DNA of 64,000 nt from Eledone cirrhosa (taxonomy: Eukaryota). Of the stretch, positions 3,429 to 63,727 are shown in pieces; the stretch's first letter is position 1, and each line of letters opens with the position of its first letter. Location: NCBI GenBank assembly GCA_964016885.1, contig OZ024745.1, positions 14,508,001 to 14,572,000 on the forward strand, in the 5' to 3' direction. The position numbers and the translations under genes were made by a program. Below the pieces are notes generated by a model that made no database searches, was not told where the DNA came from, and worked only from the letters and a program-made list of their open reading frames with translations.

Positions 3429-3479
3429 AGTTTAAGCAAAGAATCGCTGCTTTCACCCTTAACGGGATCTTCTGAAACT
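3429..3479 (-). ncRNA. Type I hammerhead-like ribozyme, CAGAAGA core variant
   Basis: AGTTT-CAGAAGA-T CCC gttaa GGG T-GAAA-GCAG cgattct TTGC-TT-AAACT; stems I, II and III can all pair. Confidence 0.6.
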
Positions 3480-3593
3480 AACAAAGTCAATCTGTAAACG
3501 CAGAAGTGGATATTTCAAAAAACGTTGCAACCGGAGGAAGACAGGAAGACGATACTCTGGTTCATGGAAACGTTCGCTGGCAAAGAACGGGAA

Positions 3594-5611
3594 AGGTTGC
3601 GTTGGCGTGCCTTTTATTTCGATAATCCGCGAAAAGCAGACAGCAAACAGGATAAATTTGGATTTAAAACCTATAATAACCCCCCGTGTAACCCAGCATT
3701 GCTACCCTTCGAAAATGATGTCTTGGAACTCATTCGGAGTATCAAATTTCGGAATAGGAGCAATTCCTTCCAGAAAGACCTGAAGAATAGAATTCGTTCT
3801 ATTAAGGATTCTAATGCCGTGCACGTCCATTCCGACAAAACTGGCAACCTATATCAAGTGGAGCGCAGTACTTACCATCAACTGCTACATAATGCTGTAA
3901 CTAAGGATTACCGTAAAACTAATCGGTGCGTCATAAATGAAATCAACGATGCTGGGTTTAAAATCACATCTGATCTCAACATCCTGGACCGGACCGAACC
4001 TCTGGACCCTATTTCTCCCCACTTTACCCTGAAGGATCACAAATCCAATTTTCCGAACAACCCCTCTATTCGGCTTATTAACCCTACGAAGTCCGATTTA
4101 GGTAGATTTAGTAAAACGATTCTTGATAGAATTATACCTGAAATTAGAAGTTTGGCCCCTCTTGCACTGTGGAACAATTCTTTCCCGGTGATTGATTCGT
4201 TCAACGGCATATGTAACAAGGAACATTGCCGTTTTATCCAATTCGACATCAACAATTACTACTCCTCCATCACTTTACCACTTCTCCTTAGAGCTATCAA
4301 TTTCGCTAAAACACTCACAGTGGTTAAGGATTTCGAAGTTGATGTCATCCTCAATGCCCGAAAGTCGGTGATTAATTTCGACGACTCTATTTGAATTAAA
4401 AAATCCAATAGTACCCCATTCGACGTGAGTATGGGCGCCAGTGATTCTGCGGAGGTTACTGATCTTATCGGCCTTTTCCTTCTTTTCTCTATCAAGGACG
4501 AATTCCCCAACGCGGGCGGTGGTTTGTACCGTGATGATGGTCTTTTGACCATGACTAAGTGCGGACCTCGTGCTTGCGACAGGTTCAGAAAAGAACTCAC
4601 AGCCTTCCTTAAAGGCTTCAACCTCTCTATACAGGTTGAGGCCAATCTCTCGGTCGTTAATTACCTCGACGTTACCCTCAATTTATTGAATGGGTTGTAT
4701 TACCCGTATAGAAAGCCGAATGATACGCTTAATTACATAAGTAAACATTCCAACCATCCTGCCAGCATAACCAAGAACCTGGTAAGAAACGTTTCGTTGA
4801 GGCTTTCCCGTCTTTCCACCAGCGAGCGTATTTTCAACGACTATTCCACTTATTACAATGAAGTTCTTGCTCGAAGTGGATTTGTCGATAAGGTAGCATA
4901 TACAGAGTACGAAAATAGACCTAGAAGAAATAGATCCCGTCGCATTTGTTGGTATAACCCACCATATAATATGGAGGTGGCCACACCATTAGCTAAGTTC
5001 TTTCTTTCCCTTATTACGAAGCATTTTCCCTCTACACATAAATATAGTAAAATTTTTAATAGAAATACTATTAAAATTTCTTACTCTACGACTCCTAACC
5101 TTGCACATAACACCACAGCTTCAAATTTAGCTAAACTACCTAGCCGTAGGAACACGTGCAACCTGTAATTAGTACTAACTGTAATTGTAGGAATCGGGTT
5201 GATTGCCCCCTATCCGGGAAATGACTCTCTAGTAACATTGTCTACAAATGTAAGGTTGTAACACCCACGTCCCGTAGGGACTACATAGGGTTAACCGCCA
5301 ATAGATTCAAGCAGCGTTTTTACATGCATACCTATTCTTTTCGTTACCCTCTAAGAAGGAATATGACGTCACTTTCAGCTTATATCTGGAGTCTAAAAGA
5401 CAACCACACCCAATAAAAGTTACACTGGGAAATCCTAGCTTTGGCTAGATCGTATCAGGGAAATAAAAGACCATGTGACCTCTGCGCCGCTGAGGCCCTG
5501 GAAATACTCTATGCCACAGACCACATCTTAAACAAAATATCTGAGGCAATTTCGGCTTGTAAACATAAATTGCACAAAACTTTCCTGTATTACAGCCCCA
5601 CGAACGGATAG
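3594..5611 (+). pseudogene. PLE reverse transcriptase-GIY-YIG endonuclease ORF, disrupted
   Basis: RLRWRA, SDKTGN, RLINP, FIQFDI, MGASDSAE and GLYRDDGL; then CNCRNRVDCPL, IVY...YIG, CDLC and CKH. In-frame TGA 4392-4394, frameshift near 5165, TGA 5222, TAA 5414. Confidence 0.9.
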
Positions 5612-6281
5612 TACGATCTATACGTGGATATTTTACGTCTTGAAGTGGGAGCTAAGTATATGTTTTGTTTATTCCTTTACTTATTTGCATAGGTAAGTAT
5701 ATATTACCCGTATGTTTTGTGAAGGTACGTATACCTTCTCGTACGTATATTTGACGTATATTTATATGTGCGTGGTTTTGTATACCTATGGTAAGGGTTT
5801 TGCGTATGCTTGTGTATGTACGTATTTGTTTGCGTGTATGTATTTATTTATTTCTATTACTTCTGTATTGTATTTATTTACTTTGTTCTTAACTCTGTAG
5901 CGGAGATTCATTCGGTTTCCTAGTTAGAATTTTAGTCTACGACTTCTGCTATACCATTTACGTGGTTTTGTCTTTGCGTGCTATTGTTCTCCACGCTCCA
6001 CATATGACGTATTATCTTCGTTTTTTTTCGTTCATTGTCAGAGAACGTCTCTATGAACCACCTAAGAGAACATTAGTCTACGACCTCTTTTATACCATAA
6101 ACGTGATCCTGTCTTTGCGTGTAATTGTTTTTCACCGCTCCTATTAATGACGTATTATATTCGTTTTTTCCCGTTCTTTGCCAGGGAACGTTTCCACGAA
6201 CCAAAGAATCGTCTTCCTGTCTTCCTCCGGTTGTAACGTTTTTTGAAATATCCACTTCTGCGTTTACAGATTGACTTTGTT

Positions 6282-6332
6282 ACTTTCAGAAGATCCCGTT
6301 AAGGGTGAAAGCAGCGATTCTTTGCTTAAACT
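6282..6332 (+). ncRNA. Type I hammerhead-like ribozyme, CAGAAGA core variant, in the PLE-1 3' repeat
   Basis: Same fold as 3429-3479 with one stem I mismatch; core 6287-6293, GAAA 6307-6310, predicted cut after 6327. Confidence 0.55.
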
Positions 6333-6400
6333 TTAATCTGTTATTTTAATAAATATATATATATATATATATATATATATATATATATATATATATATAT

Positions 6401-6679
6401 ATACGATATTAACAAATGGAAACTATATTTATAAAACCTTATTTATTTCATTATACATATTTCAAGGATACCAAGTTAAATTATGGTATGCTTTCATCAG
6501 ACAAAATACAATATATACCAGTTTTATAAATAGACATTGACGTACCCTTTCAAAATGCGACCGTTACTTTTGGAAGACATCAGGATAGGCATACCATAAT
6601 TTAACTTGGTATCCTTGAAATATGTATAATGAAATAAATATGGTTTTATAAATATAGTTTCCATTTGTTAATATTGTAT
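6401..6679. repeat. Fold-back insert between (TA)n tracts (~90 bp arms)
   Basis: 6401-6491 is the reverse complement of 6589-6679; (TA)n at 6354-6402 and ~6767-6784. Confidence 0.85.
6444..6508 (-). ncRNA. Type I hammerhead ribozyme (canonical core, short stem III)
   Basis: TATTTTGT-CTGATGA-AAGcATACCA..TGGTATcCTT-GAAA-T atgt A-TA-ATGAAATA; stem I uses two G-U pairs. Confidence 0.7.
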
Positions 6680-61766: not shown

Positions 61767-61856
61767 ATATATCCTAAAAAAATAATGACTTACAGGACTT
61801 TGTAAGTAAACTAGTAGAAATAAGAGAAAAAAGGATCCCAAGTGATGACAATCAGA

Positions 61857-62232
61857 TGATTGGCAGTATCGGTAGAGGGTCGGACGCCATGCTTTGACGC
61901 ATAGGCCCTTGCCATTCTGAGTTCAAATCCCGCCGAGGTTAACTTTGCCTTTCATCCTGACGGGGTCGATAAAATAAAGTACCAGTAATGTACTGGGATA
62001 ATTATTGGCCTTGTGCGAAAAGTAGAAACAATTATTACCAGTGGGTGAATTGGCAATATCGGTAGAGGATCGGATGCCATGCTTTCCAGCATAGCTACGT
62101 CCCTTTACGTTCTGAGTTTAAATCCTGCCAAGGTTAACTTTGCCTTTCATCCTTACGGGGGTCGATAAAATAAAGTACCAGTAATGTACTGAGATAATTG
62201 CTGGCTTTGTGCCAAAAGTAGAAACAATTATT
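61857..62232 (+). mobile_element. Two tandem SINE-A copies
   Basis: Both are followed by attattaccagtggg. Confidence 0.9.
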
Positions 62233-62236
62233 ACCA

Positions 62237-63138
62237 GTGGGAAATAGAGTTGAGAATGAAATTGATTTAGAAACATTTATCTTTGAGGACATTGCAGTTA
62301 ATTACACTAATACAGAATGGATGTCAGACAGAATAATTTTAGCTGCTAAAAACGATAATGTTGATGCTATTAATATACGACTACTTACCAAAGTAGAGGA
62401 ATATAGATTAAGAACTTACAATTCTATAGATCAAGTAGTGGATACAAATGAAGCAGTAGATTTTCCGGTTGAGTTCTTCAATTCATTAGAATTATCGGGA
62501 TTTCTACCATATGAAGTGAATTTGAAGAAAGGAGCTCCAATAATTCTTTTGAGAAATTTACAAACTCAAAAAAGTTATACACCGGAACGAGGTTAATAGT
62601 GGAATCCCTTACAAATAATGTAATTGAAGCAAAAATACAAAATGTAAAGTACAAAAATTAATTAGTATTATTACCAAGAATTAAATTACTTGCAGAGGAG
62701 CCAGTGAGGTTTACAAGATTACAATTTCCAGTTAAACTAAGTTTTGCTATGACAATAAATCATAAGGTCAAACATTTAAAAAAGTTGGTATCAATCTTAA
62801 AAATGAAGTATTTTCTCATGGACTACATGTATAACTTTCAAGATTGGAAGATCCTAATAATCTTTATTATTACATAAAAGATGAGGGCGGTGGATTGGCA
62901 GTATCGGTAGAGAGTCGGACACCATGCTTTGCAGCATAGAGTTACGGCCCTTTGCAGTCTGAGTTCAAATCCCGCCGAGGTTAACTTTGCCTTTCATCCT
63001 TAAGAAGTCTATAAAATAGGGGTCTATTTAATCGACTTTCCCCTCCCCCCAAATTACTGGCCTTGTGCCTATAGTAGAAACAATTATTACACAAAAGATG
63101 AAAATGTTAAAAATATTGTTTATGATGAAGTTCTTTAG
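62237..63138 (+). pseudogene. Helitron PIF1-family helicase C-terminal fragment
   Basis: ILAAKN..VDAIN, FPVEFFNSL, LKKGAPIILLRNL, GTRL, PRI, RLQFPVKLSFAMTIN, VFSHG and KNIVYDEVL*; frameshifted and interrupted by a SINE. Confidence 0.88.
62886..63088 (+). mobile_element. Full-length SINE-A inserted in the Helitron helicase remnant
   Basis: TSD attattacayaaaagatga at 62866-62884 and 63083-63101. Confidence 0.92.
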
Positions 63139-63609
63139 ATATAAACAAATTTCTTTTTTTAAATTAAACCAAAAGTAAAAACAAAACTGCCCCCCCCCCA
63201 TAATTAACTGGACGATTTAAAACAAAACATTATACTCGCTACTGATCGAATTTTATCAATATTATATGTTGTTGAATATAATATTCTGAAACGAGGTTAT
63301 TGTTAAATTAATTTGATATCGATACTATAAAGCTGAGGGCCGTATGTAGGTAACAAACTTTCCGCCAAATGGTTGGACCAAACAGCACCAGATTTGCATC
63401 ATAGATGTAACTTTTTCCAAGTAAAAAAGTGAGCGTAGTTTTGTCTACTGAATTTTGTTAAAAAATTAAAGACATTATTTAAATATTCACTTCTTTAAAA
63501 TTTAAAATGTCAACACATCCGGTTATACGTCATTCCTCACTTTTTCTTATGACGTCGCACAACATTCCCCTCTTTTTCTTAGTCTGTATGTCTGGCTCTC
63601 TGCATTAGA

Positions 63610-63727
63610 TAACGTTTTTCGAAATATTTACTTCTGCGTTCTCAGACGGATTTTTTTAGTTTCAGAAGATCCCGTTAAGGGTGAAAAGAGCGATTCTTTA
63701 CTTAAACTTTAATCTGTTATTTTAATA
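63610..63727 (+). mobile_element. Solo 3' end of a PLE family 1-related element
   Basis: Matches 6235-6350 including agtttcagaagatcccgttaagggtgaaa and ends at a TA run. Confidence 0.85.

Follow-up and report, generated by a model that had tools for sequence, protein, structure and literature searches.

Hammerhead folds altered at position 4 in abundant (TA)n-inserting Penelope-like families of Eledone cirrhosa

Two very abundant families of Penelope-like elements with copies in the 64-kb window (the whole stretch of DNA analysed here) carry type I hammerhead folds that are one base away from those of canonical sisters, the U of the CUGA turn at position 4 being A in family A (U4A) and C in family C (U4C). 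As far as their sequences tell, these variants are probably attenuated ribozymes, and on balance we favour the view that they are slowed but still selected self-cutting RNAs, whose cleavage would depend on dimer formation or on the element's protein. Hammerhead searches treat position 4 as invariant, and mutagenesis marks its change as costly. The two families offer a natural test of whether Penelope-like hammerheads must cut: if the variants do, the consensus and the census of natural hammerheads widen, and if they do not, elements thrive with a non-cutting fold.

The window holds 13 hammerhead sites from seven or eight repeat families, and these amount to 10 insertions because three site pairs are inverted duplicates within single insertions. 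The sites and two of the insertions are given below.

3319..6352 (+): family A insertion, a 5'-truncated Hydra-clade Penelope-like element with (TA)n at both sides
3429..3479 (−): family A hammerhead, CAGAAGA (U4A), U.U at the stem II base, 5-bp stem III; intact
6282..6332 (+): 3'-end hammerhead of the family A element, CAGAAGA, about 680 nt beyond the stop of the ORF and with a single lesion in stem I; cleavage predicted after 6327
6444..6508 (−): hammerhead of family F with the canonical core CUGAUGA
6822..6875 (+): decayed fold resembling a hammerhead, CUGAAGA; stem I has 6 bp, and stems II and III are poor
25279..~25352 (+): diverged, decayed family D relative, core CUGAGGA
33164..33248 (+): hammerhead of family D with the canonical core CUGACGA, a long stem II and a ACGCGCGU palindrome
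37171..37226 (−): hammerhead of family E with the canonical core CUGAUGA and a AUAUAUAU palindrome; this copy has a damaged stem I
46325..46382 (−): remnant of a family H hammerhead, CUGAUGA, without G12
48285..48322 (−): family B hammerhead, left arm, UUGAAAA (U3-A8), ACCGGU palindrome
48368..48405 (+): family B hammerhead, right arm, UUGAAAA
48496..56084 (+): family C insertion, a Hydra-clade element as an inverted pair, internally deleted and broken
48532..48580 (−): family C hammerhead, CCGAAGA (U4C), ACAAUUGU palindrome
55836..55884 (+): 3'-end hammerhead of family C, CCGAAGA, with a tail of 200 nt and (TA)n behind it; cleavage predicted after 55879
63658..63708 (+): family A copy of greater age (89% identical), which retains CAGAAGA but has a broken stem III

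The type I hammerhead folds are confirmed, and all 13 lie where the original prediction had placed them, with the cores it had listed. A strict descriptor is passed by four of the 13 (3474, 6500, 48318, 48372), and shuffled DNA does not match at a similar rate: 30 local dinucleotide shuffles gave three matches to the same core classes (0.1 per shuffle). The predicted association with (TA)n also holds: in every insertion a core lies at most 101 nt from a (TA)5+ run, whereas 13% of all positions in the window have one within 100 nt; two TA runs are each common to two insertions. Chance resemblance within AT-rich repeats is a very improbable source of the variant-core folds. This explanation could draw on the Rfam scan of the window (E<=10), in which none of the 143 hits was to a hammerhead family although canonical copies are present, and on a covariance model from four canonical-family sequences, which placed the variant sites at E 0.3–1.6, below unrelated hits and too weak for ranking. 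It is largely refuted by the enrichment over shuffles, by the unpaired-core controls described below, and by the sense orientation at the element 3' end, as in the Hydra hammerheads in the accessible part of PMC8557442. The Rfam matches were microsatellite-driven miRNA hits only and were rejected as hammerhead support; larger MAFFT alignments for the covariance model were structurally unusable.

The remaining sites have decayed, but they belong to families that fold well in other copies; wherever other members were found, the copy-specific lesions were absent from them. The lesions affect stem I in 6282 and 37171, the first stem II pair in 48532/55836 and stem III in 63658; G12 is missing from 46325 and present in 4/4 of its family H relatives, and 25279 and 6822 are heavily decayed. 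No clear family was found for 6822 in the data examined, and its fold remains weak. The window copies themselves are dead-end insertions.

The predicted attribution of the motifs to Penelope-like element ends is borne out, since in families A, B, C, and F the hammerheads stand behind Penelope-like GIY-YIG genes, in sense orientation at the 3' end. The RWK-like and DKT motifs of the RT N-terminal region are found as RWR and DKT in A and C, which also share a CxCx5C linker (the fetched family F stretch ends short of it). A, C, and F have a C-terminal GIY-YIG with CxxC and CxH around conserved E and N and no CCHH, their endonucleases are 36–39% identical to one another, and they insert into (TA)n. 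These three families are placed in the Hydra clade by motifs rather than by RT phylogeny. The family A insertion, whose left end (3319-3594) is an inverted copy of the element's own 3' end and tail, contains an ORF with RWR and DKT, the CxCx5C linker, and the C-terminal GIY-YIG, broken by stops and frameshifts. In family C, with its minus arm at 48496-51784 and plus arm at 51787-56084, RWR and DKT are present and the Pfam GIY-YIG match (E=0.00028) falls below the cut-off. In the window, family F forms an inverted pair over a short stretch (6403-6690), the second copy of which, near 6589(+), is incomplete; elsewhere the family carries a Hydra-type endonuclease. Both family B arms lie in an inverted-pair stub (48147-48477); elsewhere this family has a GIY-YIG ORF (Pfam E=2.6e-7, above the cut-off), whose CxxxxCxxC linker (CGRSNCGTC) suggests a Neptune-like element. 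In family E, visual inspection points to a GIY-YIG-like ORF containing a Cx4CxxC linker, although Pfam gave no hit, and no RT/GIY-YIG ORF was found upstream in the short copies examined of families D and H and site 6822. Of the claim that five or more unrelated TA-targeting families coexist, the coexistence of at least five stands, but A, C, and F are related through the Hydra clade.

Many hammerhead-bearing, TA-targeting families, as well as the U3-A8 core, are expected from known systems. The Hydra clade, with the Octopus family Hydra-1_Obim, is a published (TA)n-targeting, hammerhead-bearing group (Craig et al., 2021; PMC8557442). In the part of that paper available, its elements resemble those described here in RW[KR], DKT, the CxCx5C linker, the absence of CCHH, and (TA)n insertion, and its hammerheads in being 3' type I motifs with a mismatch at the stem II base (the U.U closure seen in family A is typical there) and a near-palindromic stem III. 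However, all 26 Hydra rows of file S2 read CUGA at positions 3-6, where A has CAGA and C has CCGA; the sequences here also differ from the Octopus motif, and stem III of family A is longer than in Hydra. Metazoan minimal hammerheads (Cervera and De la Pena, 2014; PMC4209133, in part) are likewise type I motifs with palindromic stem III and a dimer model, found in inverted pairs and solo copies, with many families in one genome. Their Fig. S3 has U4 in all 56 representatives, the descriptor having demanded U4; A and C differ. The S. mansoni(4) core in that paper, UUGAAAA, is identical to that of family B, so that this core is already known. Family B departs from the U3-A8 subtype described there in having no extra nucleotide after A9 and in being Neptune-like, not Cercyon. 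Short palindromic stem III and Penelope-like association, as here, together with the dimer cleavage that is proposed here, were reported by Lunse et al. (2017), according to the accessible part of a review (PMC6765202).

Natural variants described as active or viable include the U3-A8 covariation, the U10.1-U11.1 mismatch, and U4C in a viroid (Perreault et al., 2011; PMC3088659), and the viroid retains infectivity despite lower in vitro activity. In the part of that study available the variants are single or rare and have tertiary contacts, whereas the U4A and U4C of the present elements are family-wide and run to thousands of copies; its available text, Fig. 5 aside, does not name U4A. In the literature available, outside the full Lunse 2017 and Arkhipova 2017 papers and with figures not visible, we found no family-wide U4A and no U4C in Penelope-like elements.

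The canonical core (C3 U4 G5 A6 N7 G8 A9 / G12 A13 A14 A15.1 / U16.1 H17) is present in families D, E, F, and H, and the departures are A4 in family A, C4 in family C, and U3-A8 in family B. The base pair 3-8 is maintained throughout these three, as C-G in A and C and as U-A in B. An unbiased sample of evenly spaced genome tiles (1.2 Mb) gave 68 descriptor matches with CUGANGA, 10 with CAGANGA, three with CCGANGA, and nine with UUGANAA, compared to 0-1 per shuffle; control cores with unpaired 3-8 were not enriched (3 in tiles, 2-7 in shuffles). As foreseen, a CUGANGA-based search would miss the variants, which make up 22 of the 90 matches. Rough estimates from the tiles, truncated pieces included, are ~7e4 pieces for family A, 5e4 for B, and 1.5e4 for C.

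The variant cores proved fixed in their families, as had been proposed. A search with positions 4 and 7 left free gave 3,804 genome matches for family C, and 99 of the first 100 have C4 (this whole-genome count was made for family C only); so do 22/23 complete copies picked by a downstream query. A4 occurs in 62/66 family A copies with intact stem I, about half of them seeded by a core-containing query, and U3-A8 in 59/60 family B copies. At position 6288 in family A, no alternative letter reaches 3% among 10,111 contigs. Young copies are 97–99% alike, and thus fixation by itself tells little. This likeness would suit a founder accident, in which a master copy lost U4, the ribozyme died, and the family amplified on, the apparent conservation reflecting short divergence time; we regard such a history as rather unlikely. 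It can also cite the Naiad elements, which thrive without canonical hammerheads (PMC8557442, in part), and a sister group of family D with CCGUCGA or CCGCCGA (four copies at three loci), in which A6 is changed too, so that probably dead cores can spread as well. Against it, core and stems are kept in subfamilies 75–87% alike while loop II, N7, H17, and the 10.1/11.1 positions vary, although these copies are related and their counts are not independent. Older family A copies retain CAGAAGA across more than 30 different loop II sequences. Among 14 C-lineage copies that have diverged, conservation at the ten remaining core positions is 136/140, whereas it is 30/56 in loop II, 9/14 each at N7 and H17, and 78% and 85% in the flanks; stem cells pair in 92%, versus 25–43% when slid. 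The oldest C subgroup is mixed at position 4 (C in 2/5 copies, U in 3/5), which may reflect CpG decay or a canonical ancestor. Stem covariation, proposed as a check, was seen in canonical family F (five pairs, 20 cells, 0/500 shuffles, a figure inflated by the kinship of the sequences) but not in the C lineage, with 0 pairs of compensatory double changes and covariation no better than shuffles.

The three stems lie in type I order around the core, and stem III of B and C would form only as a dimer. Cleavage is predicted after CUU in family A and after GUA in B and C. Loop III was said to be mostly palindromic, which is so in B, C, D, and E; family A instead has a 5-bp stem III and a 7-nt imperfect palindrome. 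Between two molecules, the palindromes are calculated to form duplexes of -12.9, -8.3, and -6.4 kcal/mol; counting against the preferred reading, the minimum-energy monomer fold of A, B, and C is not a hammerhead. The paired copies in the window lie on opposite strands, so that dimerisation within one transcript is impossible for them. In tandem copies, a complete hammerhead precedes the ORF start. Transcription across head-to-tail copies would then place two hammerheads on one RNA, whose palindromic stem III strands could pair with each other, while family A could also fold alone. Slow cleavage would matter little if uncut RNA is the main template for (TA)n insertion, and under so weak a demand position 4 may vary freely, with the catalytic G8 and G12 and the rest of the core retained.

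About as improbable as the founder accident is a loss of cutting in the U4A and U4C motifs, with their retention as a folded landmark, such as a site for RT binding or template handling. Stems and most core bases are conserved although the U-turn base is lost, which this proposal would accommodate. In a type III hammerhead, every single change of the CUGA turn gave low activity (PMC9901934), so that U4 changes are predicted to lower activity, and the hammerhead of an anole element, which cuts only with the element's protein, is dispensable for insertion in vitro (PMC11167929). In addition, the motif itself holds many of the 5' ends and fold-back junctions of family A. There is no pile-up at the predicted cut, which counts against the preferred reading, with 4/37 ends within 6 nt of it and the others spread through the motif, most of the loose ends lying at the 5' edge of the core; in family C, 0/30 copies start at the predicted cut. 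However, ordinary truncation would also be expected to concentrate 5' ends close to the 3' end, and the conserved positions are exactly the catalytic set (G8, G12, A15.1-U16.1, and an H17 that is never G in 14/14 C-lineage copies).

A wider proposal, which we offer tentatively and hold to be somewhat doubtful, is that the U of the CUGA turn is dispensable in Penelope-like elements: U4A/U4C would have arisen at least three times here and would still cut, as dimers or aided by the element's protein, in tens of thousands of copies, about a quarter of hammerheads would be missed by standard searches, and some "hammerhead-free" elements may carry variants.

Family A was also found in runs of organisms B and C at 90–99% identity with position 4 unchanged, in five contigs each, which are not counted as cross-species support. 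Three older copies of family A (L291, L297, L311) seem to have a CUGAAGA core, but this reading was rejected: these are fold-back junctions where an inverted CAG reads CTG. A genuine exception may be copy L301, in which both arms carry U4.

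The window carries a real cluster of hammerhead motifs of a known kind. Rechecking of the window sequence found the 13 sites at the positions and with the cores originally claimed, and because self-comparison shows that three pairs are inverted (3429/6282, 48285/48368, and 48532/55836), they represent 10 insertions. The proposed tie to (TA)n also held: the core lies at most 101 nt from a (TA)5+ run in every insertion, and 13% of positions are within 100 nt of one. A strict type I descriptor (three stems and core) is passed by 4 of the 13 sites, and 30 shuffles gave three matches, in the same core classes. 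The nine non-passing sites each have their own lesions, and better-folded relatives were found for seven of them; the site at 25279 is a remote relative of the canonical-core family D, and the decayed site at 6822 is without clear family. An Rfam scan of the window returned no hammerhead at E<=10. The window belongs to a 3.0-Gb assembly of 1,796 contigs, is AT-rich with many microsatellites, and also contains:

3498-5609 and 50149-53860: broken ORFs of two Penelope-like elements
10735-10783 (+) and 21560-21604 (-): the strongest matches to a weak covariance model; both cores are defective, and the sites may be chance matches or hammerheads that decayed longer ago
3061-3132, 7001-7111, 7138-7489, 22139-22398, 33314-33550, and 46075-46230: long palindromes that fold back on themselves and are probably stubs of inverted pairs from other mobile elements
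36144-36703, 38813-39182, 57179-57590, 60886-63090, and others: a SINE-like repeat of ~190 bp that is very abundant and occurs in many copies and tandem pairs
62222-62596: Pif1 helicase 2B fragment (Pfam E=2.8e-7), probably a Helitron remnant

The descriptor was also run on 120 evenly spaced 10-kb tiles of the genome, with five shuffles as controls. Similar hit rates in shuffled DNA, named beforehand as refuting, were not found: the tiles gave 68 CUGANGA, 10 CAGANGA, 3 CCGANGA, and 9 UUGANAA matches vs 0-1 in each shuffle. As predicted, a search based on CUGANGA misses the variants, which make up 22 of these 90 matches. Control cores whose 3-8 position is unpaired matched 3 times in tiles vs 2-7 in shuffles, and CGGA, G3-C8/A3-U8, and U3-V4-A8 cores were absent from the 120 tiles. 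The 309 distinct matches from all DNA examined form 39 clusters (22 with at least two copies), several of them away from (TA)n; across the genome, then, not all of these motifs are tied to TA.

The variant cores are fixed within their families. For family C (CCGAAGA, U4C), a pattern leaving positions 4 and 7 free gave 3,804 genome matches; C4 is present in 99 of the 100 listed among them, and in 22 of 23 complete copies picked via a downstream query. Of 66 family A copies whose stem I is intact, 62 have the core CAGAAGA (U4A); this set was partly seeded by a core-holding query, and 25 further copies are truncated or diverged. An older A subfamily (310 matches, loop II highly variable) retains A4 where stem I is intact, and no alternative letter reaches 3% at position 4 in family A (10,111 contigs, one run), while nearby CpG sites vary. 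Family B (UUGAAAA, U3-A8) keeps its core in 59 of 60 copies, half of them seeded.

Hammerheads in these elements, a dimer model, and low in vitro activity were described earlier (Cervera and De la Pena, 2014; PMC4209133), in a paper that already holds the exact B core with its U3-A8 pair; variant B is thus already published. Craig et al. (2021; PMC8557442) described Hydra elements, including a family from Octopus, and their preference for (TA)n. CUGA is present in each of the 26 Hydra rows of that work and U4 in each of the 56 representatives of the 2014 supplement, whereas families A and C differ at position 4; both sets come mostly from descriptors requiring U4. The literature search found no report of U4A, nor of U4C in Penelope-like elements, although Lunse et al. 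(2017) may contain one, and the two family-wide position-4 variants seem unreported. U4C is known in a viroid, with reduced in vitro activity (PMC3088659), and in pairwise mutagenesis every CUGA-turn change gave low activity, except a 3-8 swap (PMC9901934).

Judged from sequence, the A and C motifs are most likely, by a modest margin over even odds, slowed ribozymes still under selection. Among 14 C-lineage copies (identity down to 75%), conservation is 97% at the other ten core positions, 91% in stems, 54% in loop II, 78-85% in flanks, and 64% at N7 and H17; stem pairing is retained at 92% vs 25-43% when slid. Stem covariation, proposed originally as a test, was seen in canonical family F (5 pairs, 20 cells), but in the C lineage there was no compensatory double change and the score was not above shuffles. 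Since copies are related, in F as elsewhere, such counts overstate the number of events. In family F (CUGAUGA), each of the four bases occurs at N7, and U4 is kept in 20 of 20. The position-4 variants could instead be a founder accident, which we consider improbable. Position 4 in the C lineage is C in 10 copies, U in 3, and G in 1, and U4C arose more than once, because sister groups of family D also carry it: one (loci L184 and L330) has CCGA[CU] cores in three copies, and another (L159, L326, L353) has CCG[UC]CG cores, with A6 also changed, in four, a possible case of a probably dead core having spread.

It is also unlikely, to a similar degree, that the variants serve as a non-cutting landmark.

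The ends of genomic copies give no direct sign of cleavage. None of 30 family C copies begins at the predicted cut. In family A, 5' ends are scattered over the motif: 21 of 37 lie between -8 and +47 relative to C3 (predicted cut +41), and the best-supported loose ends are where the core begins on its 5' side. Copies terminate in (TA)n 30-50 nt beyond the predicted cut, or past an extra tail, so the template passed through the 3' hammerhead uncut. In an anole element, the hammerhead needs the element's protein to cleave, and insertion in vitro can do without the hammerhead (PMC11167929). Compared with the best monomer fold, the hammerhead fold is 1-7 kcal/mol higher in energy; the palindromes of stem III can pair as duplexes between molecules. 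Window pairs, being on opposite strands, are unable to dimerise within one transcript; elsewhere, there are tandem copies in which the ORF start follows a complete hammerhead by 298 nt. In family A, 5' junctions and fold-back inversions cluster in the centre of the core and at its 5' edge (window 6284-6288; loci L291, L297, L304, L311, L318), and the inversions sometimes produce a false canonical core. The junction of the family C inverted pair (window 51777-51800) falls within the palindrome of stem III, with the predicted cut 6-8 nt further on; it was not seen in 29 other family C copies.

Five or more unrelated TA-targeting families had been proposed; at least five TA-associated families do coexist, but not all of them are unrelated. 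The hammerheads of A, C, and F lie in sense orientation behind Hydra-type endonuclease genes, 36-39% identical to one another, with CxxC and CxH around the conserved E and N. Families A and C also have the CxCx5C linker and, in the RT, the RWR and DKT motifs; these features are the ones described by Craig et al. (2021; PMC8557442). The family B hammerhead follows a GIY-YIG domain whose zinc-finger linker is Neptune-like, and that of family E a third endonuclease type, recognised by eye; a search beside D, H, and 6822 turned up no ORF. A second U3-A8 family (UUGAUAA; L186:7083(+), 6452(-); L256:5892(-), 662(-)) has, in L256, a Hydra-type endonuclease 2.7 kb upstream that is 50% identical to that of family C. 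At L234:8750-9683, a canonical hammerhead occurs four times in direct orientation at 311-bp spacing, with one inverted copy, as a retrozyme-like tandem repeat.
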